A stretch of 64,000 nt of DNA from Candidatus Limnocylindrales bacterium (GTDB taxonomy: Bacteria > Patescibacteriota > Microgenomatia > Levybacterales > UBA12049), in assembly GCA_035526025.1 (NCBI GenBank), contig DATLDE010000011.1, positions 49,374 through 113,373 of the forward strand, given 5' to 3'. The notes beneath the pieces are model-generated. The model made no database searches, was not told the origin of the DNA, and was given only the letters and a program-made list of their open reading frames with translations. The position numbers were made by a program, and so were the translations under genes. Each line of letters opens with the position of its first letter. Positions within the stretch are counted from its first letter, which is position 1. Positions 3,388 through 28,258 of the stretch are shown in pieces.

Positions 3388-3464
3388 AGCTGTTGAGAGG
3401 ACTTATTATACAAGATGCGCTACCTAATTAGTATGGAAGAATAATTTCAGAGGAGCGAGATTGT

Positions 3465-3537
3465 GGACGCTGAGGGATTCGAACCCCCGACATCTTCAGT
3501 GTAAATGAAGCGCTCTACCAGCTGAGCTAAGCGTCCT
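3465..3537 (-). tRNA. tRNA-Val (anticodon TAC)
   Basis: Reverse complement is GGACGCTTAGCTCAGCTGGTAGAGCGCTTCATTTACACTGAAGATGTCGGGGGTTCGAATCCCTCAGCGTCCA. It has the canonical cloverleaf, GTTCGAATC T-loop, and anticodon loop TTTACAC. Confidence 0.8.
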
Positions 3538-3646
3538 AAGTAGAATAGATTATAGAATAAATTAAATTTTCAAGCAATGGTTATTTGAGATGACAAAAAG
3601 ACAGTTCATGAAATAATTCCAAAATAATTTCTGATACAATAATAAT

Positions 3647-4102
3647 ATGGATACCCTGCCAGACATGGAAGCATACAGATTCGTTGCGATTCTAAATAAA
3701 AAAATTGAGATTGGTAAGCTGATGAATGCTCTTGGGCATATGGCTGCAGGATTGGGTGGAGGATCAAAAAAAGCCGGTCTTATGTATTTTCTGGAATATT
3801 TTGATAAGGATGGTGGCCTGCACCCAAATATATCAAACTATCCATTTATTGTTCTAGCAGCTGATAACTCCAGTCAGATAAGAACCGCCAGAATTGGAGC
3901 AATAGAAAGAGGAATTTCTTTTACTGACTTTACAAGTTCCATGACTGTCGGATCAACCCAGGAACAGCTAGATAATACCGCAAATACAATTGAGACGGAT
4001 CTTGAATATTATGGTTTATGTATGTTCGGCGCAACACAGGAGCTTCAGGACATCACAAAGAAATTTCACTTTTCAAATAACACTTTGCCCAATCATGAAT
4101 GA
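3647..4102 (+). CDS. hypothetical protein (DUF2000-like)
   Basis: 151-aa ORF. Glycine-rich AAGLGGGSKKAG segment. Overlaps the next gene by 8 nt. Confidence 0.4.
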   Translation: MDTLPDMEAYRFVAILNKKIEIGKLMNALGHMAAGLGGGSKKAGLMYFLEYFDKDGGLHPNISNYPFIVLAADNSSQIRTARIGAIERGISFTDFTSSMTVGSTQEQLDNTANTIETDLEYYGLCMFGATQELQDITKKFHFSNNTLPNHE

Positions 4103-4673
4103 AACAAGATCTGAAACAGAAAGAGTATACGCCGTTCCTAGCATGGCATTACTTGAAAGCTTTACTCTCCCTCCCGATAGCTGGTCACCAACCCAGGAAC
4201 CATCTTCAGTTATTGAAGCAGGTGAACAATACAAATTTAAAACAGCATTAGTCATCGGTCGATTTCAGCCTTTGCACTGGGGGCATATTTACTTAATACA
4301 CAAAGCACTGGAGATGTCAAAATCTGTAGTAATAGGAATCGGAAGCTCAAACACAGCTGATGAAAAAAACCCATTTCCAGCCTTACAACGTCACCTTTTA
4401 TTAGAAAGAACTCTCAATAGGGAGGGGATTAGATCAAGAATAAATAATATTGTCCATCTCACAGATCATGATGATGATAATCAATGGTTACAAAGAACAG
4501 TTTACAGGACAGGTGAAGTTGAGGCGGTAGTAGGCAATAATCAATGGGTAAATGGGATTTTTGAAAACGCTGGGTTTCAGACAGTAGAAATCCCCATGTA
4601 TAAAAGACAGATTTATAAAGGTGAGGAGATCAGGAGAAATTTGCGCAGTGCAGGTCTCCTAAGACCCCATTAA
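4095..4673 (+). CDS. cytidylyltransferase-fold nucleotidyltransferase, NadM-like NMN adenylyltransferase
   Basis: ALVIGRFQPLHWGHIYLIHKAL is the (H/T)xGH nucleotidyltransferase motif in the archaeal NMNAT context GRFQP.HxGH. Start chosen at the internal ATG at 4095 (MNETR...). Track ORF is 3990..4673. Confidence 0.55.
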   Translation: MNETRSETERVYAVPSMALLESFTLPPDSWSPTQEPSSVIEAGEQYKFKTALVIGRFQPLHWGHIYLIHKALEMSKSVVIGIGSSNTADEKNPFPALQRHLLLERTLNREGIRSRINNIVHLTDHDDDNQWLQRTVYRTGEVEAVVGNNQWVNGIFENAGFQTVEIPMYKRQIYKGEEIRRNLRSAGLLRPH

Positions 4674-4710
4674 CTAATATCATTTATCAAAAACATAGAA
4701 GTCTTTTTTT

Positions 4711-6183
4711 TTAATTGAAATTCCCAACATCTTTTGAAATCCAGTATTTTATTTTATTTTCCGGCAAAAGCATAATCCTACTCGGACTTAGTCCCTCAAC
4801 AAATTCCTCCGTGTGGCTTACAAAAAGCATTGCCCCTTTATAAGTTTTTAACGCTTCAAGTATTGTTCTTTGCGATACCATATCAAGATACGTTGTGGGT
4901 TCATCAAGTATAAGCAAATTATAATTTTGAAGCATCAGCATCGCAATCGATAGTCTGGTCTTCTCGCCCCCTGAAAGTGTACCGATTTTTTGATAAAGTT
5001 GAGGTCTTGGGAAATTAAATGAACCGAAAATTGGCAATATTTGCTGAAGAGCCAGACTGCATTGCTCCTCAATCATTTCCATTATCGTCTGTTCAAAATT
5101 AAATGTTTCAAATTCTTGTGAGTAATACCCGATATGAAGCTCAGGATCTTTTATAATATCACCAGTTGTAGGCTGCAGTCTTCCCATGAGGATTTTGATA
5201 AATGTACTTTTTCCAGCACCGTTTGGACCATACAGTGCGATGCGCTCTCCACGTTTTATAGCAAGTGATACATCATTTAAGATTTTTTTTCCTTCAAAAC
5301 TTATTGAGATATCTTTCACCCGTAGAGGGATTTCACTGGTTCGCTTTGGCTCAGGGAGCGTAAATTTAATACCACGAACTTCTTTGGGCAATTCTGGCAA
5401 TTTGTCTTTGATACGATCAATACGTGTCTGTACGCTTGCACGCGCTCTCGCACCCTTTTCTGTAAATCCACTTGCCATTTTCAAAAGACTTTTTTTCATA
5501 CGATTTATTTCTTTTTGATCATTCTCAAATTTTTTCGCAAGCATCGCGTCATTGTTTCCTTTTAACTTAACGTATTTTGTATAATTTCCTTTATATTCCT
5601 CAATTTTCTTTGTTGTAGGGTTAATTGCCAGGATTTTATCGATATGATTATCAAGAAGACTGATATCATGAGAAATTATTAGTAGGGTATTTGGATAATC
5701 ACTCAAAAATTCCATTATCCATCTCTTGCCCTCTGTATCCAGAAAATTGGTTGGTTCATCAAGCAAGAGAATCTCTGGCTCCTGAATTATTGCACGAAGC
5801 AAGGCGAGCTTTGTGCGCTGTCCACCACTTAGAATTTTGGGCATTGTGTCCAGATCTGCATTCACTTCAAGAGACTCAAGCATTACCATAAGCTCCCACA
5901 TTTCTTTTTTCATTTCAGGGTCTATATAGCTTTTGATATCTACTGCAGCAACGAGTAGGGGATCATGTTTTACTTCTTGAGGTACATATCCGATACTTCC
6001 TTGAATTTGTAGGGATCCAGTCGAAGCCTGATCTTCACCTCTTAAGAGCTTAAATAAAGTTGATTTACCAGCCCCATTTGGACCGACCAACCCAATCAGC
6101 TCACCCTTTATGACAGAAAAGCTGGAGTCAGTATAGACAACTTGACGGGAATAACCATAAGAAATATTTTTGGCGATAATCAT
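4711..6183 (-). CDS. ABC-F family ATPase (tandem ABC domains, no membrane domain)
   Basis: Two Walker A sites (GPNGAGKST twice), two ABC signatures (LSGGQRTKLALL, LSGGEKTRLSIA), two Walker B sites (LLLDEPTN, LILDEPTT). 490 aa. Confidence 0.75.
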   Translation of the reverse strand: MIIAKNISYGYSRQVVYTDSSFSVIKGELIGLVGPNGAGKSTLFKLLRGEDQASTGSLQIQGSIGYVPQEVKHDPLLVAAVDIKSYIDPEMKKEMWELMVMLESLEVNADLDTMPKILSGGQRTKLALLRAIIQEPEILLLDEPTNFLDTEGKRWIMEFLSDYPNTLLIISHDISLLDNHIDKILAINPTTKKIEEYKGNYTKYVKLKGNNDAMLAKKFENDQKEINRMKKSLLKMASGFTEKGARARASVQTRIDRIKDKLPELPKEVRGIKFTLPEPKRTSEIPLRVKDISISFEGKKILNDVSLAIKRGERIALYGPNGAGKSTFIKILMGRLQPTTGDIIKDPELHIGYYSQEFETFNFEQTIMEMIEEQCSLALQQILPIFGSFNFPRPQLYQKIGTLSGGEKTRLSIAMLMLQNYNLLILDEPTTYLDMVSQRTILEALKTYKGAMLFVSHTEEFVEGLSPSRIMLLPENKIKYWISKDVGNFN

Positions 6184-6286
6184 AATTATTTTTGAGGAAA
6201 AGAATTAAACTAATTAGTTCTTGTGAGGGTCGCAAAGCGCAAAACACAATCTCTTCTTACATTTCTATTTATTATACCAGATCTAG

Positions 6287-6369
6287 TGCGGACGAAAGGA
6301 GTTGAACCTTCACACCCTTTCGGGCACTACCACCTCAAGGTAGCGTGTATACCATTTCACCACGTCCGC
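6287..6369 (-). tRNA. tRNA-Leu (anticodon GAG)
   Basis: Reverse complement is GCGGACGTGGTGAAATGGTATACACGCTACCTTGAGGTGGTAGTGCCCGAAAGGGTGTGAAGGTTCAACTCCTTTCGTCCGCA. The long variable arm is typical of Leu. No encoded CCA. Confidence 0.8.
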
Positions 6370-6559
6370 GTATTTTTGTGCCCCTGAGGGACTTTCTTTT
6401 GAACACTTCTTGCCTTGGATTCAGAAAATAATAAATGTTTATCAAAACCTTGAAGATGCTCAAGACGGTCAGCTTATACCTCAGGACATTACAACCTCTA
6501 AAGCATATTATACGAAAAAATTGAATTAAAAGAAAGTTAAATGATTAATAGAGAATTGG

Positions 6560-6832
6560 TTACTTTCCGTAGACTTCATCATGTGTTCCAATATCGACAA
6601 AGTATGCTGTACTATCATCAAGTAAATGATAAATCATTCTTATATTCATTGTAATTGAGATACTCCACATGTTTGTTAAGTTCCCAGTTAATTTATGGAG
6701 TCGCAATGAAGGATGCCTCGGATTAGTTTTTAATAGCTGTAATTGTTTAATGATTTTCTTTTCTAGTTTTTGATCTGTTTTTTTAATTCTTGATAATTCT
6801 TTTACGACAAGCGGAGAGAGTTTAAAATTCAT
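6560..6832 (-). CDS. type II toxin, RelE/ParE superfamily
   Basis: 90 aa. HPSLRLHKLTGNLTNMWSISIT...YFVDIGTHDEVY fits the RelE/YafQ-like core. Start overlaps the upstream antitoxin stop (ATGA). Confidence 0.65.
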   Translation of the reverse strand: MNFKLSPLVVKELSRIKKTDQKLEKKIIKQLQLLKTNPRHPSLRLHKLTGNLTNMWSISITMNIRMIYHLLDDSTAYFVDIGTHDEVYGK

Positions 6833-7086
6833 TACAATTCTTCAAAAAACTTAGTGACATCGTTAACTGAAACTGCATTATTAATCTGCTCCATTGCTTC
6901 CTTGGCTCTTTTTTCAGTCCTTTCAGACATTTTAAATGTAGGATATTCTTCAGTCTCTACCTCTTTGATTATGAGATGTTTTACAAATTGAGTTACAGGA
7001 ATACCTAAGCGCGAAGCTTTAGACTGCAATAAATCATTCAGTTGGTCCGAAAGGCTAATTTTGAGTTGTATTTGTTGTGTATTCAT
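6832..7086 (-). CDS. cognate antitoxin (RHH/ParD-DinJ-like)
   Basis: 84-aa acidic protein immediately upstream of, and overlapping, the toxin. PVTQFVKHLII is ribbon-helix-helix-like. Confidence 0.5.
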   Translation of the reverse strand: MNTQQIQLKISLSDQLNDLLQSKASRLGIPVTQFVKHLIIKEVETEEYPTFKMSERTEKRAKEAMEQINNAVSVNDVTKFFEEL

Positions 7087-7227
7087 AAAATTACTTAATT
7101 AATACCTAAATTATACCTATAAACTGTAGCTATGTCAAGATATAAAAAAATAAAGTGTTCAACTCTCCTTTAGGTGGTCATAAAAAATAGGCTAAAAATA
7201 CAAAAACTATTAAGTTATAAAATCGCC

Positions 7228-7255
7228 ATTTAGCCCGATATATCAATCTATTCGT
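7228..7255. repeat. 27-bp direct repeat, copy 1 (ATTTAGCCCGATATATCAATCTATTCGT)
   Basis: Matches 8581..8607 in 26 of 27 positions. The two copies bracket the Fic gene. Confidence 0.7.
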
Positions 7256-7391
7256 ATGTTTGAGACCGACCATGTCTCCTCTGGTGCACAAGAGAACTCT
7301 TATTTTGAACTCTTGCTGACATATTGTAACAAGTTGATGGAGGCTTATCAAGATAAAGCTGAAGACAAAATTGATAAAAATGAATAATTCC

Positions 7392-8426
7392 TTATTTCTC
7401 ACTCAAAACATAATAAGTGGCTCTTCCTTGTCCTTTTTTCTGAATAAGTCCTGCATCGATAAGTTTTTGAAAATCTAAAACTCTCGTGGGCTTGGCTCTT
7501 GACACTAGCTTTGCATATTCTCGATGGGTAATTGAACCATTTTCTTTTATAAAATTGAGTATTTTAATATGATAATCTTCTAATCTCGTGACTGATTTAA
7601 TAAAGGTTTCTGGCAGTAATTTTTGAACCCGGAGAAGCTCATCAATAATTCCTTCTGTAAAATACTCAAGCCATCTGGTGAAATCCATTTTCTCAGCTAA
7701 ATCATAATAATTTCCAAATTCTCCAACTGTTTGAAAGTATTTTGTAACATTTTTGTTATAATAATTTTCAAAACTAAAGAGACTGAATGTATTTAAACCC
7801 ATTTTTGCTAACAACACTTTTGTCATGAGTCGAGTTGTTCTTCCATTGCCATCCATAAATGGATGTATAATCACCATTTGTTTATGAAAAATACCAGCTA
7901 AAATAAGTGGATCAATACCTATGTTGTTAACATTGACATACCTTGTAAGCTCTTGAAGCATAGGTATTACATCTTGTACATCAGGAGGTAAATAAACCAT
8001 TTTGCCGGTTCGTGGATCATTAACAACTACCGGCTTTTGTCTAAGACCAATTTCGAACTTAGGAAGTAATCCTTCCATGACTTGTTTTTGAATTTTTAAG
8101 ATGAGGTCAAGTGAAAATTCCACTTTTCCCTCAGAAAGTTGTTGATTTAATTCTTGAAGCGCTCGGTTATAATTAAGTACTTCTTTTTCGCTGTCTCTAA
8201 TATGAGAAGGTGTGGTCTTAAGAATTTTTTTAACTTCGGTAAGAGGTAGTGGATTGCCCTCAATACTTGTGGAAGAGTAAGCTGATACTTCGCGGGCCGT
8301 CTTTTCAAATTCAAGAAGTATAATATTTGGGAAATGTCTGTTATTTAGCTCCGCCACAAGAGAAGTGATTTGCTTAATATTGGCGAGTAAACGTTCTGTA
8401 ATAGTGTACCTAGGATTAAATGACAT
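7392..8426 (-). CDS. Fic/DOC family protein (AMPylator-type) with C-terminal winged HTH
   Basis: HPFMDGNGRTTRLMTKVLL matches the Fic motif HPFx(D/E)GNGR. An N-terminal TSIEGN inhibitory-helix motif (S/T)xxxE(G/N) is present. 344 aa. Confidence 0.8.
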   Translation of the reverse strand: MSFNPRYTITERLLANIKQITSLVAELNNRHFPNIILLEFEKTAREVSAYSSTSIEGNPLPLTEVKKILKTTPSHIRDSEKEVLNYNRALQELNQQLSEGKVEFSLDLILKIQKQVMEGLLPKFEIGLRQKPVVVNDPRTGKMVYLPPDVQDVIPMLQELTRYVNVNNIGIDPLILAGIFHKQMVIIHPFMDGNGRTTRLMTKVLLAKMGLNTFSLFSFENYYNKNVTKYFQTVGEFGNYYDLAEKMDFTRWLEYFTEGIIDELLRVQKLLPETFIKSVTRLEDYHIKILNFIKENGSITHREYAKLVSRAKPTRVLDFQKLIDAGLIQKKGQGRATYYVLSEK

Positions 8427-8580
8427 TAGACGTATTATAGACGATTACTAGACGATTGTCAAGTATGTCTCACAATATTTGATTTAAATTAAAGAATACG
8501 AAGAGAAGAGTTGAACTTTTTTGAAGCTAAATTTATAGATTTGCTTACCACAAATAACTGTATGTTCTTATCAAGACAAA

Positions 8581-8607
8581 ATTAGCCCGATATATCAAGC
8601 TATTCGT
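8581..8607. repeat. 27-bp direct repeat, copy 2 (ATTAGCCCGATATATCAAGCTATTCGT)
   Basis: Second copy lies about 30 bp from the 3' end of tRNA-Leu(CAG). Confidence 0.7.
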
Positions 8608-8636
8608 CGCTTTGACAATACTACTATCTTCTCATG

Positions 8637-8719
8637 TGCCCAGGAGAGGAGTTGAACCTCCACGCCCTTGCGAGCACTGGCACCTGAAGCCAGCGTGTAT
8701 ACCATTTCACCACCTGGGC
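8637..8719 (-). tRNA. tRNA-Leu (anticodon CAG)
   Basis: Reverse complement is GCCCAGGTGGTGAAATGGTATACACGCTGGCTTCAGGTGCCAGTGCTCGCAAGGGCGTGGAGGTTCAACTCCTCTCCTGGGCA. Long variable arm. Confidence 0.8.
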
Positions 8720-8809
8720 ATGACAGGCTTATTCTAACGCCAAGCATAATTTTAACAGAAGATGATACAGTTGACAACGGAGGTGAATTTTGCAAATATA
8801 TAGTAGCCC

Positions 8810-9376
8810 ATGAGAAAGTTATTACTTGCCTCAATCCTCCTGGCAATCACTCCGCTTGCCATGATCCTTGGCCTCGTCGTCTTCTTAAATAGCTATAGCC
8901 AGACAGCCCAACCAATCACATACCGCGAAACCGTCGCGTACGCAGCGCTCCCATCTGATCAAAACATTATTTCAGGGAATATAATTGAAAGTCAGAACGG
9001 CAAAGCTGAAAAAATCAGACAATTTTTAGCTCGATACAATTCACCACTTGAGCCTTATTCAGTTGACATTGTAAATGCAGCAGAAGAGTATGGCCTTGAT
9101 CATAGGTTAATTCCGGCAATTGCCATGCAGGAGTCTACACTTTGTAAAAAAATACCCGTAAATTCTTTTAATTGTTGGGGATTTGGGATTTATGGAACCA
9201 AGGTAACAAGATTTGCTGACTTTAAAGAGGGTATTTATACCGTAACAAGGGCACTTGCTACAAGATATAAGAAAAGAGGACTTGTAACAGCCGATCAAAT
9301 AATGACTATGTACACCCCAAGTAGTAATGGTAGTTGGGCAAGAGGTGTAAATACAGTCCTCAATCAGCTTCAGTAA
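8810..9376 (+). CDS. secreted/membrane-anchored GH73-like glucosaminidase-domain protein (FlgJ-like), paralog 1
   Basis: N-terminal TM/signal. FLARYNSPLEPYSVDIVNAAEEYGLDHRLIPAIAMQES...NCWGFGIYG resembles the FlgJ glucosaminidase core (FLARL..P...A.QES.WG...NLFGIK). Confidence 0.45.
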   Translation: MRKLLLASILLAITPLAMILGLVVFLNSYSQTAQPITYRETVAYAALPSDQNIISGNIIESQNGKAEKIRQFLARYNSPLEPYSVDIVNAAEEYGLDHRLIPAIAMQESTLCKKIPVNSFNCWGFGIYGTKVTRFADFKEGIYTVTRALATRYKKRGLVTADQIMTMYTPSSNGSWARGVNTVLNQLQ

Positions 9377-9551
9377 ATCGATCACATCTTATAGTTTGGT
9401 ACTTGACAAACCTATAGTTATATGATATTATCCCTTCCAGATCCTAAGGCAAGTGCCCAAAACACTTGCGTTAGGATTTTTTTTAATAAAAATTAAATAG
9501 CATCTCTATTCTCACCAATACCAATCTTACAAGATTTTTCCAATACTTATT

Positions 9552-10100
9552 ATGAAAAAAATTTTATTTTTAATACTTTGCGCTTTATTTTTTCAGAATG
9601 CAGACCCTACTTTTGCCAAAACACCTATTGCACGATCATCTGCAAAATTAGTTGTATCTAATAGCTTACCTAAGAAGGATAGGCGTGCTGAAATACTTGA
9701 ACAATTCCTTATTGAGCGAGGGTCTCCACTTGCGCCGCATGCTCAGACATTTATAGACGAGGCTGATAAAAATAAGATTGACTGGAAGCTAGTCGTTGCC
9801 ATTTCAGGCAACGAATCTCAATTTGGTCTTCTGATCCCACCATATTCCAATAATGGATGGGGTTATGGAGTTTATGGGAACAATGTCAGAAATTTTGCGT
9901 CATGGGATGAGGGAATTGTAGTTGTATCAAAAGCATTGAGAAAAGACTATTTGGATATGTGGGGCGCAACAAATATTTATGAAATAGGAGCTATTTACGC
10001 AGAAGATCCGTTATGGGCAAATAAAGTAAGCTACTATTTAACACTCATTGAAGAATACGATTCGGAACCTTCGAACACTTCTATTTCAATTTCTCTATAA
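9552..10100 (+). CDS. secreted GH73-like glucosaminidase-domain protein, paralog 2
   Basis: Signal peptide. Same motif layout as 8810..9376 (QFLIERGSPLAPHAQTFIDEADKNKIDWKLVVAISGNES...NGWGYGVYG). Confidence 0.45.
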   Translation: MKKILFLILCALFFQNADPTFAKTPIARSSAKLVVSNSLPKKDRRAEILEQFLIERGSPLAPHAQTFIDEADKNKIDWKLVVAISGNESQFGLLIPPYSNNGWGYGVYGNNVRNFASWDEGIVVVSKALRKDYLDMWGATNIYEIGAIYAEDPLWANKVSYYLTLIEEYDSEPSNTSISISL

Positions 10101-10105
10101 ATATT

Positions 10106-11827
10106 CTATAATAATATTGTCTTTTCGTGGTTCCAGTCAAAATGCGTAGCATTTTGATAGAGGAGCAACCGACGAAAAGCCGCAATCCGAATGCAATGAG
10201 GATAAAGGCTGCAGTCGAGTTGTGACGAGCGGACGTGGTGAAATGGTAGACACGCAAGTTTTAGGAACTTGTGCTCAAAAGGCTTGGAGGTTCGAGTCCT
10301 CTCGTCCGCACACAACAGTACAGTCTCATCCTTAAACCCTCGAATAGCCTGATATAACGGGCTAATCTTATGATTCAATGTACCATTATAGCTCCAAGCT
10401 AATCCTTCAGGGAACATTGAACCAAGCAGTACCTTAGCCTGACTTTGATTTGATCTTTTGTAAGCTTCCCCAAGATCTGCTAAGAGTGTCTTTATAAAAG
10501 ACGTAACTTTATCAATATTGTAATTCTCCATCGTTGCGTCATCTTTACTGATCAAAACTTGAGTAATTTGGTTTTCAATAGTTGCGTTTTGCTCCTTAAA
10601 GATTTCATCAGAATATACACCTGAAAGGTTTTTCTCAACTAACTGTTTTCTAAGAGCTTTAAGCCTCACTATCTCATCATCAGCATTATTTTTAATCTTA
10701 AGTAGCCTTGAATATCTTGCATGGTATGTCTTGTAAAGACAGGTTATGAAAAGATTAAGGCATTCTGTTTTGGGAGTAACTTCTTTGAGTAAATTTATCA
10801 GGACATTATCAAGATCATTTGTTTTAATTGATTTACTATTGCAGGGTTTACCACAGCGGTAATATTGATATTTAATGTGTCGCCCCTTACTCCATGCACC
10901 AGTTAAGCCAAATCCGCATTTTGAACACTTTATAATCCGTCTTAGCGGAAAATCAGGGTTAATGTGATTCCTTTTGGCTAAAGCCACTTTATTTGGGTTC
11001 CGACCGTCCAGAATGGCCTGTACCTTATAGAATTGCTCCTCTGTGATCATTGGTACATATTGTCCTTTTACTTCCTCATTGTATGTGTTTGAGGACAGAA
11101 TTCCCATATAAAACTTATTTCTAAAAAGTTCATTTACTCTCTGGCGAAGCAGGGGATACTCTTTTTGTTTACGCATATGCCTCAAGCCCCAGTCATTCAT
11201 AATTTCAGCCATCTCAGAAAGGCTCTTAGTGCCTGTCGCCATAAGATCCCATGCTTTTCTCATACTATCCCAAGCTTTTGGATCTTTTACCGCATAACCT
11301 GTCTGAACCATATAACCAAGAGGCACAGAGCCTGTAACGATCATTCCTGACAAAAACCGTGCTCTAAGCCCATTTCGTGACCTTTCTGAGCGGATATCAT
11401 TATCAAGTTGTGCAAAGCCAGCAAGAATTGTCTCAACCAGCTTTTCTGTTGGACTTTCTCCAGTTGGCTCGGAAATTGAAACAACATTTGCTCCGTATTC
11501 AGCAAGTTTTTTCCTTATACTTAAATAATCAGCAGTTATTCTTGAAATCCTATCTATTCTATAGACAAATACAGCTTGAACCCTATTCTTGTTTTTCCGG
11601 CAATACTCAAGTAGATTAATCAGAACAGGTCTTCCGGTTATGTTTTTAGCAGAACGCCCCTCTTCTCTAAATATTTCAATCACGTCATAGCCTCTTTTCT
11701 CCGCTTCTTTTCTGCACATACCCTCTTGGGTATCCAGGGAGAAGTTATCAACCTGCTCCTCAGTTGATACCCGAATGTAGATTACTGCTCTTTTCCCATC
11801 AGCATAAATTGCTTTTTGCGGTCTCAT
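10106..11827 (-). CDS. large serine recombinase (resolvase/invertase N-domain + recombinase domain + zinc ribbon)
   Basis: N-terminus AVIYIRVSTEEQ carries the catalytic Ser. Zinc ribbon: CSKCGFGLTGAWSKGRHIKYQYYRCGKPC. 573 aa. The last roughly 70 codons run antisense through tRNA-Leu(TAG) and beyond. The true C-terminus is uncertain. Confidence 0.8.
   Translation of the reverse strand: MRPQKAIYADGKRAVIYIRVSTEEQVDNFSLDTQEGMCRKEAEKRGYDVIEIFREEGRSAKNITGRPVLINLLEYCRKNKNRVQAVFVYRIDRISRITADYLSIRKKLAEYGANVVSISEPTGESPTEKLVETILAGFAQLDNDIRSERSRNGLRARFLSGMIVTGSVPLGYMVQTGYAVKDPKAWDSMRKAWDLMATGTKSLSEMAEIMNDWGLRHMRKQKEYPLLRQRVNELFRNKFYMGILSSNTYNEEVKGQYVPMITEEQFYKVQAILDGRNPNKVALAKRNHINPDFPLRRIIKCSKCGFGLTGAWSKGRHIKYQYYRCGKPCNSKSIKTNDLDNVLINLLKEVTPKTECLNLFITCLYKTYHARYSRLLKIKNNADDEIVRLKALRKQLVEKNLSGVYSDEIFKEQNATIENQITQVLISKDDATMENYNIDKVTSFIKTLLADLGEAYKRSNQSQAKVLLGSMFPEGLAWSYNGTLNHKISPLYQAIRGFKDETVLLCADERTRTSKPFEHKFLKLACLPFHHVRSSQLDCSLYPHCIRIAAFRRLLLYQNATHFDWNHEKTILL
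10229..10310 (+). tRNA. tRNA-Leu (anticodon TAG)
   Basis: GCGGACGTGGTGAAATGGTAGACACGCAAGTTTTAGGAACTTGTGCTCAAAAGGCTTGGAGGTTCGAGTCCTCTCGTCCGCA. Long variable arm. Confidence 0.8.
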
Positions 11828-12213
11828 AGGCCTCCTTTCTCATGAAGCAACTCATTTAAAGTTTTTCCTTCAAATATTTCTCGCTCAAAATCATCAAGCC
11901 AACTTTCAGCTAGGAATTGGACTTTTGTTACCGTATCTTTTAACTCATTTTCGCTAAATTGAGTAGCCATAGGACCTAACGCCTTTTTTGCCTCTTGAAT
12001 AATTTTTCCGTCATATTCTTGCTCCGGGAATAAATCATCCAAGGATTGTTTAAGTGATTGAGAAATTGGCTTGGGCGCAGAGACAGGTAGGGATTCATCT
12101 AAAACTTGTGCTAAAGGAGTAATTATCTTTTCTTGAGAAAGTGGCAACTGTTGAACTGCTGCATTCATATTTGGTCTATCAACATTGTCAATTTTCAAAG
12201 CTAAACTAGTCAT
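11824..12213 (-). CDS. hypothetical acidic protein, overlaps the recombinase start (ATGA)
   Basis: 129-aa ORF translationally coupled to the recombinase. Confidence 0.45.
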   Translation of the reverse strand: MTSLALKIDNVDRPNMNAAVQQLPLSQEKIITPLAQVLDESLPVSAPKPISQSLKQSLDDLFPEQEYDGKIIQEAKKALGPMATQFSENELKDTVTKVQFLAESWLDDFEREIFEGKTLNELLHEKGGL

Positions 12214-12454
12214 ATATGATTAGTATATAACTATATATGCCTAGTTGTCAATCGCCAAATTATTTGCTCTTATTAAGAGCTTTTAAGTGCTTTTACAATG
12301 CTTCTTTTAGGGGTCTTACCCCTCTAATGCAAGGGTAAAATGCACTCCTCATTCTTCGTCGCCCTTGCATTATTCACCCTGCTTATGACTTTCAGTCAGG
12401 TAGTCGGGCATGGGCATGCCCGACAAAAACAATTATGAGAAAGGAGGTGAGAAT

Positions 12455-12790
12455 ATGGAATTATTAACAGTAGAGCTTAAAGAGAAACTTCCAGCTCTTT
12501 ATGCTCAAGAGAAAGAGAGAGATCCATTGGTGTATATTAAATTCTTTGATCCAACCGGATCATGGACATGGTATGCAACTGAAGGTGAGGAGGCAGATGA
12601 TGACTTTCTTTTCTTTGGGTATGTTGTAGGACACGATTCAGAGCTTGGGTATTTTACTCTTAGCCAGCTGAGGAGTGCTAAAAAAGGCGTGAGCGGTATT
12701 TTGAGCTTACCAATAGAACGTGATCTATATTTCAAGCCATGCAGGCTTTCTGAGGTAAAAGGATTAAATCAGTCCATGTGTAAGTTTTAG
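12455..12790 (+). CDS. DUF2958 family protein (plasmid/ICE-associated)
   Basis: KFFDPTGSWTWYATEGEE...FGYVVGHDSELGYFTLSQL...ERDLYF matches my memory of the DUF2958 signature. Start taken at the ATG preceded by GAAAGGAGGTGAG. Track ORF is 12410..12790. Confidence 0.6.
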   Translation: MELLTVELKEKLPALYAQEKERDPLVYIKFFDPTGSWTWYATEGEEADDDFLFFGYVVGHDSELGYFTLSQLRSAKKGVSGILSLPIERDLYFKPCRLSEVKGLNQSMCKF

Positions 12791-12837
12791 TGATAGTGGG
12801 GTGCTGACAAAGTGCCCCACTATTCTAATATGCTAGA

Positions 12838-13629
12838 TTATTTTATACTTTCCCAAATACTTCCAGTTACGCCATTTGCTATTACATCCTCAGCTGTTGC
12901 GAACATGATTGATAACTCATCAGTGTTATCTTCCTCAAGTATTCTTTTAGTATAGCGTTTTGCATAAATCATCCTTTCCTTTGTTCCTCCGACAAAAAAT
13001 ATCATGGGAAAAGGTGAATTTATGTGGTTTTCCCACTCATTACTGTAGTAAAAATCTTTGTATGCGCGTATTCGTTTTCGTATTCTGTAATATGGAAGTT
13101 TCTCATCAAAAATAGTCAGTAGGAAGTATTGTATTTTTTTGCCCTTTTCTTTTTTAGAAAAACATATATCAACCGACAGATCAGAGTTTTTTAAAAATTT
13201 AAAGTCACTATCTTCATTACAGATATCGCTTTCGGTTGAATATGTGCGAGTTACGGTATCATTGTTTTTCCTCTCAAGCTCGCAGCAAATTCTAGAGATA
13301 AGTAAACAGTGTTGAATAAAGCTATCAGAGCGGGTCTTATCCCAGTAGAGTTTATGAATAAAATTTGTGTCATATTTTCCTTTTGCTTTTATATATCTTA
13401 TCCCGTTATTATCCAATGTATAGATTGCCGATATTCTGTTTTTCCCAATGATCGTATTGTCATATATTCTTTTGATGTATTTCTTCTCTGTTAGGTCTTT
13501 TAACCAGTTATTTATTCTTGCCTCGTCTTTGTGATTGAGGAGGGATTGGATATGTTGTCTGTTGAGGAATCTGTATCGTGGAATTAGTGTTGTTATTTCT
13601 TGTTGTTTGTTAGTTATGTTAGGTATCAT
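12838..13629 (-). CDS. replication-relaxation (Replic_Relax) family-like protein
   Basis: 263 aa. N-terminal wHTH-like region (LIPRYRFLNRQHIQSLL...WLKDLTEKKYIKRIY). Family call is tentative. Confidence 0.4.
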   Translation of the reverse strand: MIPNITNKQQEITTLIPRYRFLNRQHIQSLLNHKDEARINNWLKDLTEKKYIKRIYDNTIIGKNRISAIYTLDNNGIRYIKAKGKYDTNFIHKLYWDKTRSDSFIQHCLLISRICCELERKNNDTVTRTYSTESDICNEDSDFKFLKNSDLSVDICFSKKEKGKKIQYFLLTIFDEKLPYYRIRKRIRAYKDFYYSNEWENHINSPFPMIFFVGGTKERMIYAKRYTKRILEEDNTDELSIMFATAEDVIANGVTGSIWESIK

Positions 13630-13788
13630 TATGTTTGTTTTTTTTGTATATATTTATTTTTTACTTTTATTATTTATGCCATGCCCAACCGTATTAATAT
13701 ACTCCGTTATTTTTAAGGGTAGGTGTCACAATTCTATTGCATATTAGCTTCAAATTAGCTTAAAAATTGTCGTTAACATCAACGACAA

Positions 13789-16548
13789 TTAAATATATTG
13801 TTGTTTTATAGTTTTTATTCCTTTTTTAACCCCGTTTGTTTTTACTGTGAGCTTACTTGCTTCTAGCAATTGCTTATCTTTTTTTTCAGAGTCTGTTTTC
13901 TTTGTGTTTCCTTTTGTAGGTACTGCTTTGAACAATTTTTCCAGTTGCTTTTCAACATCTGCTTTTGGAGTCGCATAGTGTGCCCTTGAATTCTCAATAA
14001 TCTTTTTTGCTGTTTTGTCACTCCCTTGTTCTGTTACGGGTAACGTAACGCCTGAAAATGCATCTTCTGAATGCTCATTGGTCACTTTCATATAGAAGTG
14101 GTGTGGCGCAAGATTAACTATTGCCCCTTTTTCTACTTCCGGCTCAAGGAAGGGTAGAAGGATTTTTTCATCATCAGGTCCGTTTTTAAGAGCAATTAAG
14201 TTTCCACTATTACTTAAAACTATCTTTGATAATTTTGGATCTTCAATTTGGGCAATATTTTGATGAGACGGCGTGAAGTAAACATGATACTTTCTTGCTT
14301 CTGAAAAAAGATCAGTAAAATGCGCACTTGCAAAGTTTTGAAATTCATCGATATAAACATAGAAATGAGATCTATCTTTTTCCGGTATTGCGGCTCTGGC
14401 ATATACAGCCAGTTGGATAAGGGAAAGTATTAGCGTGCCAAAGAACGCACTCCGCTCTTCTCCAAGCTTCCCTTTTGAGAGATTTACCAGAAGAATTTTA
14501 CCCTTATCCATTATTGCTGAAATGTTAATTGTTGTATTTTTCTGAAGTAAGATATTTCTTGACAATTTATCTGTCATAAATTCACCCAGTTTGTTGGTCA
14601 AGGGGGAGGCAGCATCTGCCTGCTGAATTTTGCCATATGAGCTATACTCTTTTTCCCAGAATTGCTTTAATACAGGATCAGTAAGAGTTTGAGTAACAGT
14701 TCTTCTATAGTCCTTATCAGTTAACAGTTTTTGAATTGCCATTAAAGAAATGTATGGAGTCTCAGGAGTCGGAGTATGTACCTGGAGTGCAGTAAGCGTG
14801 GCATTTCTGAGGATATGCTCCATTTTCTGACCCCAATGCTTCTCTGGTGTTATTTTCATAAATACAGCCATTAATGACCTGGCAATGAAACCATGCTCCT
14901 CATCAATATCTGAGAATTTTATATCTGGGGAGAGTATATTAAGTCCCAATGGAAAATCTTTATCAGAAGGATTAATTAGGACTACATCTTTCAATCTGTG
15001 TTTGGGGATAAGAGTCAGTAAATGCTCAATCAAATCCCCATGAGGATCAAGAATTGCAATCCCTTTCCCATTTTGAATGTCTTGTAGTGCCATACCTTCA
15101 ATAATGGTTGTTTTACCCATACCTGTTTTACCGACAATGTACGTGTGCTCCTTTTTATTCTTATCAGTTAACCCTACTTCAGTTTTTTCTCCACCATAAT
15201 TATTTGTACCAACTACAACGTCAAACTGCGTTGCTGTTTTTTTAAATGAATGAGGAGCAGGTAGTTCCTTACTTTTGCTTTTAACCATATCCTCAGTTTT
15301 GGTTGTTTGAGTGTAAGGCAAGTGATAGATGCTTGAGAGTTCTGTAACTGATAAGAAAATTGTATGGGAAAAAGAAAGGAGCCTGTTACCAAGTTGGTAG
15401 ACAGAAAAGAGTAAAATATATTGTTTTATTCTTTTAGGAATGAATGATGAAAAAACTGTGTGACGCGGAATAATTGCCTGATACTGGGCATTATCAAATG
15501 TTGAAAGTGTTGCCTGGAACCCCCTTATCCTCTCCCTAACAATATTCGAGTTATTTCCAATAACAAGAAGTCGCATGCTTGTTTCAAACACAGGAAGTTG
15601 TAACTTATCCTGTACCTGCTGAAACAATACTTGTTGAGTAGCTGTTGGGGTAAAGACTTTCTTGGGCTTTGCCTCATAATTATTACGTGGAGCTGGTTGG
15701 TTACTGCTACTTCTCAGTGCAATATCAGCAAAAAAACCAATAATTCCAACTAATAACCCAAGAGTCCAATAAATTAATTTACTAATTACATTAATTGGAA
15801 AAACAATGACTGAAAGCAATCTATTCTTTTGAATAATTGGTGAAATATCCTTATTGTGCCAGAGGTGATTTAGTAGCTTATCTGCCTCCTGTGTTTTTGC
15901 CCTATTACTTGCCTTGTCCATAGGAGAAAGGATTAATTGCAGGGAAATAAGCTCCTGTGGTGCAAGCTTTGTCATATTGCCTGTTAGGTATGCAATTGGA
16001 TCATGCTCTCTTAGTTTTGTTTGATCTGTTAGAGGGATAGCGAAGTGGTTTACTAAACGGAATGTTATTAACCGTATAGCTTTACTTGCTGTGAGAAAAT
16101 TTCTTATGCCTTCAAATGATCGCGGAAGATAATCAGCTACCTCCTCTATCTCAACACTTGGTAAGTATGAAAGAAGTGTTTTTCGTATAACTGGGGCATC
16201 AGATTTAGCTGTGTGAATAAGATAACGGATTCCTTCTTCTTTGGTTGCAACAAGCTCAACACTGATTGTTGTTTTGTCATGTATAAATCTTTGCCAGAAT
16301 GTTTTTCCTTTGATTAGCGAATGGAGTTGGGTAAATAACTGCTCTGTAGCATAGGAACTCTGGAGTGTTTGCTTGATTGGTTTAATTGAAAGAACAACAT
16401 GTGGGGTATTGAGTTTCCTTTTTAGCAGTAAATACCTGGAGAGGAGATAAACTATGAGCAAAGTAAATGCTACGCATGAGAGTAATATTAAGTACGCTGG
16501 AAGAACTGCCAGAAATGATATATATTGTGTTGGCATATGCAATATCAA
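13789..16548 (-). CDS. conjugative-transfer-type P-loop ATPase (TraG/TraD/VirD4 coupling-protein-like, or VirB4-like), membrane anchored
   Basis: N-terminal TM helices. Walker A YIVGKTGMGKTTIIEG near residue 480, followed by IAILDPHGDL. Walker B YVYIDEFQNF. Lys-rich C-terminal tail. Confidence 0.6.
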   Translation of the reverse strand: MILHMPTQYISFLAVLPAYLILLSCVAFTLLIVYLLSRYLLLKRKLNTPHVVLSIKPIKQTLQSSYATEQLFTQLHSLIKGKTFWQRFIHDKTTISVELVATKEEGIRYLIHTAKSDAPVIRKTLLSYLPSVEIEEVADYLPRSFEGIRNFLTASKAIRLITFRLVNHFAIPLTDQTKLREHDPIAYLTGNMTKLAPQELISLQLILSPMDKASNRAKTQEADKLLNHLWHNKDISPIIQKNRLLSVIVFPINVISKLIYWTLGLLVGIIGFFADIALRSSSNQPAPRNNYEAKPKKVFTPTATQQVLFQQVQDKLQLPVFETSMRLLVIGNNSNIVRERIRGFQATLSTFDNAQYQAIIPRHTVFSSFIPKRIKQYILLFSVYQLGNRLLSFSHTIFLSVTELSSIYHLPYTQTTKTEDMVKSKSKELPAPHSFKKTATQFDVVVGTNNYGGEKTEVGLTDKNKKEHTYIVGKTGMGKTTIIEGMALQDIQNGKGIAILDPHGDLIEHLLTLIPKHRLKDVVLINPSDKDFPLGLNILSPDIKFSDIDEEHGFIARSLMAVFMKITPEKHWGQKMEHILRNATLTALQVHTPTPETPYISLMAIQKLLTDKDYRRTVTQTLTDPVLKQFWEKEYSSYGKIQQADAASPLTNKLGEFMTDKLSRNILLQKNTTINISAIMDKGKILLVNLSKGKLGEERSAFFGTLILSLIQLAVYARAAIPEKDRSHFYVYIDEFQNFASAHFTDLFSEARKYHVYFTPSHQNIAQIEDPKLSKIVLSNSGNLIALKNGPDDEKILLPFLEPEVEKGAIVNLAPHHFYMKVTNEHSEDAFSGVTLPVTEQGSDKTAKKIIENSRAHYATPKADVEKQLEKLFKAVPTKGNTKKTDSEKKDKQLLEASKLTVKTNGVKKGIKTIKQQYI

Positions 16549-16719
16549 TAATTTTGAGGCAGTAGTCTAAAGCGGACAGAGGTTTTAGATGAAGCTGATG
16601 ATATCAGAAAAGGTTATTTAAGTACAGATGTCATACAATACCCAATAACCTGCTAAGAGACTTTTTTAATACTTGAAGTTTTAGAGCATGATGGGAAAAA
16701 AGACCAAAGCATCTTGGTT

Positions 16720-17655
16720 TTAAGCAGCAATCTTGTCATAGTAAAATAACTTTCCTCTTACGTCGTCAAAGCAGCGTTTCGAAGTTAGAGCTGATGGTAT
16801 ACCATTTGCATGCCCAGCTTGTTGATAAGCTTGCCATTCTTCAGGATCAAATCTGTCAACATATTCACTGGCATCTCTAGCAATAAAATAAACTGGTATC
16901 CCCGCAGCTAAAGCTGTAGTTCCTTTTAAAAATTCACGCCTATCCTTTAATGGTTCTTCTTTCTTGTTTATATAAGACACTGCAGCAATTTCAGCTGCTG
17001 CAGCTGCTGCTACGTATGGAGCTGTAGCTAAAGTTAATTTTTTCATACCGTATAATGCGGTTACAGCATTTCTAGTGTTTTCACCTCGTCTCCCACCTTG
17101 CACTACGTGATATAGCTCATGAAAAACTACTCCATTTAGTGCAGAATTCCAATGCGGAAGAATGTCTGGGGCTATTTCTAAAACTATTGGATCTTCAGGA
17201 TACATAGGGTGACGTACTGTGCCTGAAAATCCGCTATGTCCATCTCCGTTACCCCTATCTTCTTTACGCATTTGATTTATTTCTAGTCCGTATTTTTTAA
17301 CGTATGCAGATACTCTGTCTACCTCAGAGACTCCTCCGTCAAGATAGGATAAGTAAGTTAGGGCACGAGACATAGTATCCAAATTGACTGCGGGTTGGCT
17401 TGGACTTCCATCTGATCCTCCACCTATTACTATAACAGTGTCAAACTTTCCAGCTTTCATGTATTTTTTTATTTCCTCTGCCTTGGGCTTTAGAAGTTCA
17501 GCAGTTTGTGGAGATATATCATAATCAGGACCAAATGTTCGGTTTTCATAGGCTTTACTTCCCAGGACCCCCCCCAATACAGTAGCAACTCCCGCTTTTG
17601 CACCTAAACGTAAGAATCTTCTTCTGCCTATGCTTACAGGATCTCTTTCCGCCAT
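16720..17655 (-). CDS. Tat-signal secreted protein with HExxH zinc-peptidase-like motif
   Basis: N-terminal RRRFLRLGAKAGVATVLGG. FHELYHV is an HExxH motif. A second internal Tat-like motif, DRREFLKGTTALAAGIP, is also present. Confidence 0.45.
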   Translation of the reverse strand: MAERDPVSIGRRRFLRLGAKAGVATVLGGVLGSKAYENRTFGPDYDISPQTAELLKPKAEEIKKYMKAGKFDTVIVIGGGSDGSPSQPAVNLDTMSRALTYLSYLDGGVSEVDRVSAYVKKYGLEINQMRKEDRGNGDGHSGFSGTVRHPMYPEDPIVLEIAPDILPHWNSALNGVVFHELYHVVQGGRRGENTRNAVTALYGMKKLTLATAPYVAAAAAAEIAAVSYINKKEEPLKDRREFLKGTTALAAGIPVYFIARDASEYVDRFDPEEWQAYQQAGHANGIPSALTSKRCFDDVRGKLFYYDKIAA

Positions 17656-17870
17656 AATGCGGATTATATACCGTTCTAGGATAAATTTCTACACTATTTT
17701 GAGCAGGTTAATTCCCCACTAGAGAAAAAATATATCTAAGTCCATTTCTACAAAACTTAAAAATTTTTACATTAAACACTGTCATATTCAAAAATACATG
17801 AAAAAGTAAATAATTTTATTTTCCTATAGTACTTGTTTTTGCCATTTCAGGCTGCTAAAATAGGCAAATC

Positions 17871-18767
17871 ATGATGCAAGCCGAAAGAAGACCGAGCCGA
17901 TATGAGTTTGGTGATCTAAATAGAAGTCTTTTAAAGGATCTTCGCATTGTCCATTTGCCAGAAACCACCAGCACAATGGATTTAGTTGATGGATTAGCCA
18001 GATCATGGGCAAAAACAAAACGCGAATTCATACCCCCAGTTGTAATAATTGCGGATCATCAAACTGCAGGAATCGGCAGAGGAGATTTGGGAGAAGAAAA
18101 AAAGTGGCATGACATACCCGAGCTATCTATGCTTTTTAGCATTTTTATTCCAAAAGACAGAATAGAAGAAGAAAATCTACCCGAGTTATCAGATTTGGTT
18201 GCATTAAGAACATGCATGGCACTTAGAAAAGCAGGAGGAAATTTTCTTATAAAAGCCCCCAATGACATTGTTGACGCAGATACTGGTAAAAAGGTTAGCG
18301 GACTTCTTGTTAGATCGATTTATTCAGATGAAGGAGAATATTTGGGAGCAAATGTTGGAGTAGGTACAAATGTTCATTATAGAGATAATCAATTAGCTAA
18401 TTTTCCTGTGGAACCTGAATATGGAGCAATCTCAGTAGATAGCGCAACTGGTCAATTCAATAGTAGACAAGATTTATTGGTTGATATCTTAACTGGTATT
18501 TCCACAGTTGTTCCGGAAGCCGCCACTATCAATAAGGGAAGTGTTCATAACCCAACATCTGTTCATGCTATACAAAATGCCGAATGGAGAAGGCATTCAT
18601 ATTTACTAAATGAAAGGGTAGTAGTTAGAGAAGGTGAACAAGTCGTAGCCGAGGGAACAGTTGTTGACACAGAAATTGGTAACGGATTTATATTGAGATC
18701 AAATGATGGAATTGAGCATGCGGTACCGGTTTTTGGAACAGATACGAAGGTGAGGTTAGCTTCATGA
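17871..18767 (+). CDS. biotin--protein ligase (BirA-like; BPL catalytic domain + BPL_C-like C-terminus), paralog 1
   Basis: TSTMDLV...VVIIADHQTAGIGRGDLGEEKKWHD is a divergent BirA GRGRxGRxW block. The C-terminus VVVREGEQVVAEGTVVDTEIGNGFILRSNDGIEHAVPVFGTD is SH3-like as in BirA. Confidence 0.6.
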   Translation: MMQAERRPSRYEFGDLNRSLLKDLRIVHLPETTSTMDLVDGLARSWAKTKREFIPPVVIIADHQTAGIGRGDLGEEKKWHDIPELSMLFSIFIPKDRIEEENLPELSDLVALRTCMALRKAGGNFLIKAPNDIVDADTGKKVSGLLVRSIYSDEGEYLGANVGVGTNVHYRDNQLANFPVEPEYGAISVDSATGQFNSRQDLLVDILTGISTVVPEAATINKGSVHNPTSVHAIQNAEWRRHSYLLNERVVVREGEQVVAEGTVVDTEIGNGFILRSNDGIEHAVPVFGTDTKVRLAS

Positions 18768-19186
18768 TTGGTGAAGGATTTAGGAGATTACCCAGACCCG
18801 AAGGAGATGGCCATCCAACTAGAGAAGTACGGGGAAATGTTACTAGAAGTATCGAGCGTTTAAGGCCAGATTCCATAGCAGTTGAGTTAGTGCCACCTCA
18901 TGAGCTTATGCCATTTATTCTTCCTCCAAGTGCCGAAGGGGTAGTGCAAGCAATAGCGGCATTCGCAATCAGTGGAGAAACCCGTACTGCAGTTTGCGAA
19001 TTTGAAGATCGCAGAAACGATACGGTAACAAGAATTACTCTTGAAAATCCAACTGGTGATCCTTTCAACATGAGAATTACCCTTTCCAGTCCAGACAGAG
19101 AAGAAGGAGAAAAAGTACCACCCGGTATTGGCATTAAGGTTGTTGATAAAGAAGGAGCAACTCAAAAAGAGTTAGATAAAAAGTAA
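18764..19186 (+). CDS. hypothetical protein
   Basis: 140-aa ORF overlapping the ligase stop. No recognisable motif. Confidence 0.35.
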   Translation: MIGEGFRRLPRPEGDGHPTREVRGNVTRSIERLRPDSIAVELVPPHELMPFILPPSAEGVVQAIAAFAISGETRTAVCEFEDRRNDTVTRITLENPTGDPFNMRITLSSPDREEGEKVPPGIGIKVVDKEGATQKELDKK

Positions 19187-19263
19187 GACTTTGGAGACGG
19201 CTGAATCCTCGAGAAGATCCTCTTATTCAAGTTGGACAGACAGTTGAGCCTGGAGCTACTCTT

Positions 19264-19446
19264 ATGCTTGCAACAAGAGGCAAAAGTATCAAAAGAAGAA
19301 TAAAACTTCCAAGAGATAAATTTCCCAAGGGAGGTAAAGTTACTGCTATTTACGTTGACCCAGAGGACAACAATGAAGAACTCCGAAAAAAGGGTAAATT
19401 AGTTAATGGTGAATTTGTTCTTGCAGTTATAGATCCAGTTAAATAG
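19264..19446 (+). CDS. small ORF of uncertain status (possible fragment)
   Basis: 60-aa ORF. The frame is open about 78 nt upstream of the ATG without another start codon. KGGKVTAIYVD is KOW/hybrid-barrel-like. Confidence 0.25.
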   Translation: MLATRGKSIKRRIKLPRDKFPKGGKVTAIYVDPEDNNEELRKKGKLVNGEFVLAVIDPVK

Positions 19447-19449
19447 CCT

Positions 19450-22875: not shown

Positions 22876-22877
22876 AT

Positions 22878-28124: not shown

Positions 28125-28258
28125 CATAATCAGCTCACTTTTCCGGCTCTTCCGCTGCTTGATAAGCCTCCATCAAACTGCTAAAATGGACTATGAACTG
28201 GAGGAAAAGCGGTTCAAAATAAATACTATCCTCCGCACACCAGCGGAAAAATATAAAT

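Follow-up and report, generated by a model that had tools for sequence, protein, structure and literature searches.

In a 64,000-nucleotide stretch of DNA from Candidatus Limnocylindrales bacterium (GTDB Patescibacteriota, Microgenomatia, Levybacterales; contig DATLDE010000011.1, positions 49,374 to 113,373; hereafter the window), an integrase gene, int, for a large serine recombinase (LSR) reads antisense through a complete tRNA gene before it reaches a stop codon. Sequence comparison makes it very probable that the odd tail is the attL junction of an integrated mobile element whose LSR recombines within its own 3' end. The free element would encode a protein of 539 amino acids (Int-539), and recombination at the tip of the tRNA would split int after about codon 507. 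Once integrated, int has no stop of its own, and its reading frame runs antisense into the tRNA to a chance stop, here after 66 residues. The tRNA body is host DNA, and the tRNA stays intact on integration. The design, which combines LSR integration with an attP site inside int, is widespread in bacteria of the candidate phyla radiation (CPR) and is unusual.

In the integrated state, int is an open reading frame (ORF) of 573 amino acids on the minus strand (10106..11827). The host tRNA-Leu(TAG), which is intact and is the integration target, lies on the plus strand at 10229..10310, with the acceptor stem GCGGACG/CGTCCGC (10229-10311 on the plus strand with ARAGORN; 10229-10310 with Rfam, 56.8 bits). 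The whole tRNA is enclosed by the int ORF on the opposite strand, and the ORF goes on for 120 nt to the stop at 10106-10108, stop codons being called with translation table 11. Codons ~506-533 are antisense tRNA and codons 534-573 are the 120 nt up to the stop. The element encodes codons 1-507, and codons 508-573 come from the host, first as tRNA read antisense and then as 120 nt of intergenic sequence; the stop is 66 codons beyond codon 507, or 65 beyond the crossover codon 508. A preliminary description of this DNA had reported a frame open to 10106 across the entire tRNA and 120 nt beyond, and the ORF list, ARAGORN and Rfam agree on this. It had also called the tail rich in Cys, His and Trp, and 4 Cys, 6 His and 1 Trp were counted in the last 68 amino acids (CADERTRTSKPFEHKFLKLACLPFHHVRSSQLDCSLYPHCIRIAAFRRLLLYQNATHFDWNHEKTILL). 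Its suggestion that integration joined the end of the recombinase gene to the tRNA region is borne out, since attL falls in int codons 506-508.

The int product is a complete LSR by domain content. It matches the Pfam families Resolvase (PF00239, 8e-32, residues 14-161), Recombinase (PF07508, 2e-8) and Zn_ribbon_recom (PF13408, 2e-7), and the catalytic (R19, S21) and zinc-ribbon (C301, C304, C325 and C329) residues that are invariant in the Int family alignment are all present. Matches in the PDB are 3guv (resolvase family), TP901-1 and the C-terminal domain of A118 integrase (7e-8). An AlphaFold2 model of a homolog (P0078) predicts LSR domains plus the coiled coil that LSRs carry inserted in the zinc-ribbon domain, with helices 355-402 and 408-431 at a predicted local distance difference test (pLDDT) score of 80-90.

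Homologs were collected by protein search (E <1e-10, more than 1000 homologs) and the best 120 were inspected. These are 64-92% identical to the window Int over ~89% of the query, with a modal length of 511 aa, and nearly all of the 120 end in antisense translations of tRNA 3' ends. The C-terminus follows the target: ..S[CS]A[DE]ERT for Leu, ..SGAGDGNRTRDLLLGKETFYH for Gly, ..FGDPTGNRTP.. for Glu and ..GGEGGIRTH.. for Ser. Eighty genome loci were fetched with the family alignment and analysed with tblastn and ARAGORN. The analysable loci number 78, with the window counted both among the 78 and among the 57 loci described next. Almost all of the fetched loci come from metagenome-assembled genomes of Patescibacteria/CPR (Levy-, Davies-, Woese-, Roizman- and Gottesmanbacteria, Saccharibacteria and others). 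A tRNA on the opposite strand, with its 3' end 31-34 nt past the codon equivalent to Q494 in the motif ISPLYQ, is found in 57/78 loci, and most of the others stop at a contig edge. The targets in the 57 loci belong to 15 anticodon classes and seven amino acids (Glu 16, Leu 16, Gly 15, Ser 7, Asp 1, Arg 1, Lys 1). As 57 of the 78 independent loci have the antisense tRNA equally far from one and the same codon, the arrangement is not due to chance, and the design is common to over 50 related elements of ultra-small (CPR) bacteria.

The ORF stops 4-86 codons past the tRNA 3' end in the 57 loci (68.7 codons in the window), and it overruns the tRNA 5' end in 23 of them, the window included. As the stops are so variable and the tails vary with the tRNA, the length and sequence of the tail are set by the neighbouring tRNA. 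An alternative is that the ~66-residue extension is a real, selected C-terminal domain, such as a Cys/His metal-binding tail. It is indeed Cys/His-rich, and its first residues (CADERT) recur in many homologs. However, what recurs is conserved tRNA 3' ends translated in antisense, and these residues switch with the tRNA type (SGAGDGNRTRD with Gly, FGDPTGNRTP with Glu, GGEGGIRTH with Ser), nothing is shared beyond the tRNA, and the last 40 residues are covered by no homolog, all of which makes such a domain extremely improbable. In the preliminary description, conservation of the extension at the protein level among homologs had been proposed as evidence against a non-protein-like tail. Homologs do have the start of the extension (..CADERT..) in common, but the sole reason is that the 3' ends of tRNA genes are conserved as DNA, so the comparison is flawed as a test.

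Some loci (L003, L023 and many "uncultured Gammaproteobacteria") are titled Nanoarchaeota, Woesearchaeota, Gammaproteobacteria or Pseudomonadales, and their Int sequences are 57-74% identical to CPR copies. These non-CPR titles are likely cases of mis-binning or mislabelling, with a true presence across domains the less probable reading. A search of a viral collection for relatives of the Int element found none, leaving a phage unsupported.

The position of the stop can be traced to a single base of the tRNA. The closest relative, which is P0001 of locus L001 (511 aa, 92% identical), is at tRNA-Leu(GAG), and its ORF ends ..CADERS and then TGA, which is the antisense of the T-loop TTCAA. The T-loop of the window tRNA-Leu(TAG) is TTCGA (10291-10295), and codon 512 of the window int is CGA. 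Thus, the window int reads on because TTCGA gives CGA where TTCAA in the relatives gives TGA. Among 16 loci targeting Leu(CAG/GAG/TAG), 12 have antisense TTGAA and every one of them stops at codon 512, whereas the four with TCGAA all continue for 16-68 codons. The T-arm/loop concerned (GGTTCGAG, 10289..10296, plus strand), whose antisense gives the CGA of codon 512, is also proposed to be the motif of the attB half-site for the zinc-ribbon domain (ZD). The same T-arm (TTCGAGTCCTC) is found in the tRNA-Leu(TAG) that is unoccupied in L001, so the base at codon 512 is that of the host tRNA and not an element mutation. The preliminary description had also considered that a stop was lost. This is right insofar as the closest relatives end 6 codons into the tRNA (511 aa, TGA), but that TGA was never element DNA, being supplied by the host tRNA.

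A stronger version of the same idea is that int has decayed, its stop lost by mutation and its long tail the mark of a pseudogene in a dead element. The 511-aa end of the relative with 92% identity would fit, as would the degenerate copies of the same element type 2-4 kb away. Against this, the base that differs belongs to the T-loop of the host, and the TTCGAG T-arm is present also in the unoccupied tRNA-Leu(TAG) of L001; all family-invariant residues are kept; the tail on the attR side is intact and in frame; and 23/57 relatives likewise read through their tRNA. Decay is therefore very unlikely.

The integrated element is 17,927 bp long (from about 10313 to 28231) and lies between the attL and attR cores. 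The attL core TCCGCACAC is at 10305..10313, and an identical attR core TCCGCACAC is at 28232..28240, followed by host DNA and the gene for trigger factor (28259-29089). This 9-bp core is the only sequence common to both element ends. The far core was found with an 11-nt pattern for the tRNA end, at one mismatch (TCCTCCGCACA at 28229-28239, 20 nt upstream of trigger factor), together with synteny to an empty site. As in Islander-class islands, one end has an intact tRNA and the other a displaced 3' fragment, the fragment here being the 9-bp core at 28232-28240 alone.

Comparison of L001 with the window sets side by side two close elements in different Leu tRNAs. The T-arms follow the host tRNA type: that of the occupied Leu(GAG) in L001 is the same as that of the unoccupied tRNA-Leu(GAG) of the window. 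The spacer just 3' of the tRNA (..CA[CA][GA]ACAGTACAGT..) is common to the L001 and window elements, and is missing downstream of unoccupied tRNAs. With a T-arm of host type and a 3' spacer of element type, the junction is placed in the last ~10 nt of the tRNA. A crossover deeper in the tRNA was rejected, as the T-arms track tRNA type and not the element. The 26-nt repeats of ISPLYQ-coding DNA at 8581-8606 and 7230-7254 were also considered as an att core and rejected, since they are int 3'-end remnants of decayed elements.

An empty site is available for comparison in L001, where tRNA-Leu(TAG) is followed after 12 nt by trigger factor, DUF5660, threonine dehydratase, L-PSP and M20 peptidase. 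This is the gene order of the window at 28259-33651, and the reconstructed attB aligns through the L001 tRNA into trigger factor (73% identical protein). Metagenome assemblies may break or misjoin at repeated tRNA sequences, and the contig could in principle be a chimera that misjoins an integrase gene and a tRNA locus. However, the same architecture is found to within 3 nt in 57 independent assemblies from many studies, and both flanks match the collinear empty site, so that an assembly artifact has next to no probability.

When the right and left ends are joined at the core, the reconstruction gives a 539-aa Int ORF ending ..ETVLLCA-EDSIYFEPLFLQFIVHFSSLMEAYQAAEEPEK, against 573 aa at attL. 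The attP site is inside the int ORF (crossover at codons 506-508), as in the Mx8-type layout. The alternative Int C-terminus, EDSIYFEPLFLQFIVHFSSLMEAYQAAEEPEK followed by a stop, is encoded at 28135..28233 (minus strand) in an otherwise non-coding gap after YafQ, and comes into frame with int only after excision. The preliminary description had offered, as one alternative, a real C-terminus lying upstream; this is contradicted, as the C-terminus conserved as protein is encoded 17.9 kb away at the other element end (28135-28233, minus strand).

Similar tails of ~30 aa (xFEPxL..LMEAYQ plus an acidic end) are seen at 10 independent places, including relatives that target other tRNAs. Two homologs without a tRNA-type end, P0078/L082 (..GDPSALYIEPALTWFTSLMEFYQNVDISMN) and P0080/L083, are in the attP form, with contigs that run into toxin-antitoxin or other genes. 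Tails are also found at the far ends of the L058, L025, L040 and L068 elements, beside a second tRNA-end core and all in frame with int, and further ones occur at decayed junctions in L004 and L077 and in the window (7214-7387 and 6344-6529, plus strand). Five elements have cores of 7-11 bp at both ends, and reconstruction gives an open, in-frame tail for every one of them. A hidden Markov model (HMM) was built from four tails and run on six-frame translations of all loci. It found five more at E 4e-7 to 2e-4 (L025, L040, window 6344-6526, L077 and L004), and L068 only at E=0.037. A protein search with the 75-aa attP-form C-terminus found only three fragments, of the integrated type. There are two classes of tail: long ones ending YY[TI]KK[LI]N before the stop (6344-6529 in the window; L058 2826-2981; L077 2532-2792) and short ones ending after the acidic stretch.

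The distal blocks of the tail, LM(E/D/L)xYQ and then acidic residues, with YY[TI]KK[LI]N at the end of the long versions, are 60-150 nt from the crossover. Their codons differ synonymously (TTG/TTA/CTT, TAT/TAC), which, at the level of sequence, points to selection on the distal blocks as protein.

The att sites themselves have a regular anatomy. The 57 attL sites were aligned on the tRNA, and positions were numbered as idx, the distance in nucleotides from position 76 of the tRNA (idx0). In the 57 tRNA arms, the T-loop read in antisense, (x)TCGAAC(C), is at idx 17-24. A T-loop-like motif, [TA]T[TCG]GAAC[CTA], is at idx 22-29 in 11/13 element P arms (the main element and two remnants in the window, L058, L025, L040, L004, L082, L083, L006 and L060). 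It is exactly 5 bp farther from the core than the true T-loop, a displacement of the distal motif that is known from LSRs: in A118-type integrases, the half-site positions taken by the ZD motif are 16-24 for attP and 11-19 for attB, a 5-bp shift (Rutherford et al., PMC3783163). By analogy, the zinc-ribbon domain would read the near-universal T-loop in attB and its mimic in attP. In the window element, the proposed ZD motif of the attP half-site is GGTTCAAA in the P arm (28211..28218, plus strand), 5 bp outward of the T-loop. Acceptor-end sequence would then determine which tRNA is chosen. If the ZD reads the T-loop and its mimic, the spread of one scaffold over many tRNAs would follow. Read in frame, TTC GAA CC of this motif gives the F-E-P of the tail.

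In all five elements, the core starts at idx0, and the part common to the five is tRNA positions 70-75 (10307-10312 in the window), which places the crossover inside this stretch. When attP was inspected for dyad symmetry, the P' arm had only a weak TTTGA, which does not fix the crossover dinucleotide. The ISPLYQ-coding DNA (ATTAGCCCGTTATATCAA; window 10341-10366) is conserved at the nucleotide level in the 57 loci, including most third codon positions. It is 36-53 nt from the crossover, beyond a normal 50-bp attP, and may be a second DNA site or merely a strong codon preference.

Several observations weigh against the junction and the conserved tail as described. No long repeat marks the right end, the search of the window for tRNA or half-tRNA repeats having given at most 9 bp. 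The empty site is from a different species, and its tRNA-Leu(TAG) differs in the acceptor stem. L068 and L077 break the 5-bp rule and have deletions. For the crossover dinucleotide, symmetry with the weak P' motif suggests positions 73-75, and analogy with A118 numbering suggests 70-71. The FEP of the tail is a DNA motif, and conservation as protein rests on the distal blocks in ~10 sequences. In the AlphaFold2 model of P0078, the tail helix (516-530) has pLDDT <50 and is uninformative. For this element, no excision product, attP read or activity has been observed, and the circular forms are deduced from two short metagenome contigs that are possibly tandem junctions.

If int is split at the junction as proposed, two forms of the enzyme would exist. 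No other recombinase is present, so the integrated-form enzyme must carry out excision, and the conserved tail, which it does not have, should thus be dispensable for catalysis. The tail more likely modulates directionality, synapsis or stability, and the 66-aa host-encoded tail probably has no function of its own. The free and integrated forms would differ through the tail swap, as the IntP and IntX forms of Mx8 integrase do, and the swap may bias integration against excision or alter the level of Int. That it has a real regulatory role is conceivable, with the balance somewhat on the side of doubt. Transcription of the integrated int would converge on the tRNA gene, giving an mRNA end complementary to tRNA-Leu, and this could reduce expression.

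With the junction still right, the swap may instead be neutral and follow simply from attP being packed into the int 3' end, both Int forms acting alike, and the tail kept for another purpose or by DNA-site constraint. Integrated tails of 4-86 residues have no common sequence and yet excision is needed, suggesting that the core enzyme is tolerant at this end; the FEP is fully accounted for by the TTCGAACC DNA motif; and the structure model is silent on the tail. On the other hand, LMEAYQ and YY[TI]KK[LI]N are 60-150 nt from the crossover, past any 50-bp LSR attP, and vary synonymously; 5/5 reconstructed tails are open and in frame; and the equivalent change in the Mx8 tyrosine integrase alters its behaviour (PMC6070905). 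Neutrality has a substantial chance of being correct, though well short of an even one.

A broader proposal can be put forward tentatively, and is itself on the doubtful side. This is that the elements carry a large, undescribed CPR/Patescibacteria LSR family, in which the ZD would read the universal T-loop (GGTTCGAA) and its 5-bp-displaced mimic, at least 15 tRNAs would be retargetable through inner contacts, and a conserved C-terminal helix present only in the free form would act as a switch between integration and excision, possibly together with the product of orf129. This gene (11824..12213, minus strand) overlaps the start of int by 4 nt, has a promoter-like site at 12251-12222, and is directly upstream of int in 73/81 loci. 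Searches of Pfam and PHROGs with orf129 gave no match; by position it is a possible partner, regulator or directionality factor.

Among known systems, myxophage Mx8 is the closest in gene layout. Its attP is within int, and integration makes a new 3' end and an altered C-terminus, with activity modified but not abolished (PMC6070905). The intP/attP arrangement (IntP to IntX) and the element described here share an attP inside the integrase coding sequence and a recombinant gene with a changed C-terminus. However, Mx8 is a phage with a tyrosine recombinase, whereas this is an LSR on a conjugation-type element, so that the likeness is in gene layout only. In addition, the new tail here is antisense tRNA of arbitrary length, and the design is kept across a family targeting at least 15 tRNA species. 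The LSRs of the A118/LI type have in common with the window Int the resolvase, recombinase and zinc-ribbon domains, the coiled coil, short att sites and the 5-bp shift of the distal motif (PMC3783163). Similarity to them is only 7e-8 over ~100 residues, however, and the window Int has an extra conserved C-terminal region (aa ~440-505). The target is also a tRNA 3' end and not a protein gene, and the P' arm of attP is int coding sequence.

For an LSR beside a tRNA-like target, the nearest counterpart is DsiB, a CcrB-like LSR of the Dehalococcoides ssrA islands, which inserts in the T-loop of transfer-messenger RNA (tmRNA) with a 20-bp direct repeat (PMC3146451). Like the window element, these islands have a ~540-aa serine recombinase gene beside attL at a tRNA-like 3' end and form tandem arrays; they are integrative-mobilisable, the type that also fits the window element better. 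They differ in the tmRNA target and in the second, small serine recombinase DsiA, and no overlap of int with its target or C-terminal swap has been reported. Islander-class tyrosine islands similarly integrate at tRNA 3' ends, leave the tRNA intact, have an adjoining int and accrete in tandem at the same tRNA. Their recombinase belongs to another superfamily, and the repeat here is only 7-11 bp, so that the element supplies almost no tRNA. In the Islander paper, tRNA genes are said not to be known as targets of serine integrases (PMC4383910), a review of integrative mobilisable elements describes serine-recombinase elements as inserting within genes (PMC5704250), and a large LSR survey never mentions tRNA (PMC10083194). 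Literature searches, with incomplete coverage that makes an earlier description possible, found no account of this tRNA-targeting Int family.

Int ORFs of the family are mis-sized in databases (506-588 aa), as their ends are host tRNA read backwards, and the conserved C-terminus is invisible in integrated copies. The family targets tRNAs systematically, in genome-reduced bacteria in which gene transfer is little known. With one scaffold retargeted to many tRNAs while its outer motif stays fixed, the family amounts to a natural experiment on how serine integrases acquire their specificity, which has a bearing on integrase engineering. The design offers testable ideas on tRNA recognition, and an integrase sequence that depends on integration state offers another on control of directionality or expression.

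The backbone of the element consists of int, orf129, DUF2958, a Replic_Relax nickase and a type IV coupling protein (T4CP). The transfer module (12838..16548, minus strand) comprises the nickase (12838-13629; Replic_Relax 7e-8, and PHROG "replication initiation by nicking" 7e-13) and a TrwB/TraG-like T4CP of 919 aa (13789-16548). In 81 related loci, orf129 recurs in 73, T4CP in 62 and Replic_Relax in 49. No VirB4 or other mating-pore genes were found among the ORFs at 16720-28124, and on this gene content a mobilisable element is a better fit than a self-transmissible one.

The cargo, which does not recur, includes a 1141-aa biotin-carboxylase/acetyl-CoA carboxyltransferase fusion, two biotin/lipoate ligases, Fic-MerR and RelB/YafQ. 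The carboxylase fusion is flanked by the two biotin/lipoate ligase genes (17871-23726), a block with no counterpart in 80 related loci. Metabolic cargo of this kind is unusual on mobile elements of CPR bacteria. Unrelated elements have a toxin-antitoxin pair beside their attP P arm, namely RelB/YafQ in the window (27387-28124) and CopG/BrnT in L082 (5498-6035). In the circular form, such a pair and the end of int would converge.

The five tRNA genes in the 8.6 kb at 1714-10311 of the window include three Leu isoacceptors, two of them occupied or scarred by this element family, which makes the region a local integration hotspot. Besides the main element, further elements of this type form a decayed tandem array (6344-8719) at tRNA-Leu(CAG) (8636-8719, minus strand). 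The array contains an int 3' remnant, ..QDKISPIYQAIRRFDNTTIFSCAQERS, with its stop in the T-loop (~8572-8658, plus strand), a Fic gene (7392-8426), an attP-like junction at 7214-7387 (..SPIYQSIRMFETDHVSSGAQENSYFELLLTYCNKLMEAYQDKAEDKIDKNE) and a terminal attP-type tail at 6344-6529 that abuts the 5' end of tRNA-Leu(GAG).

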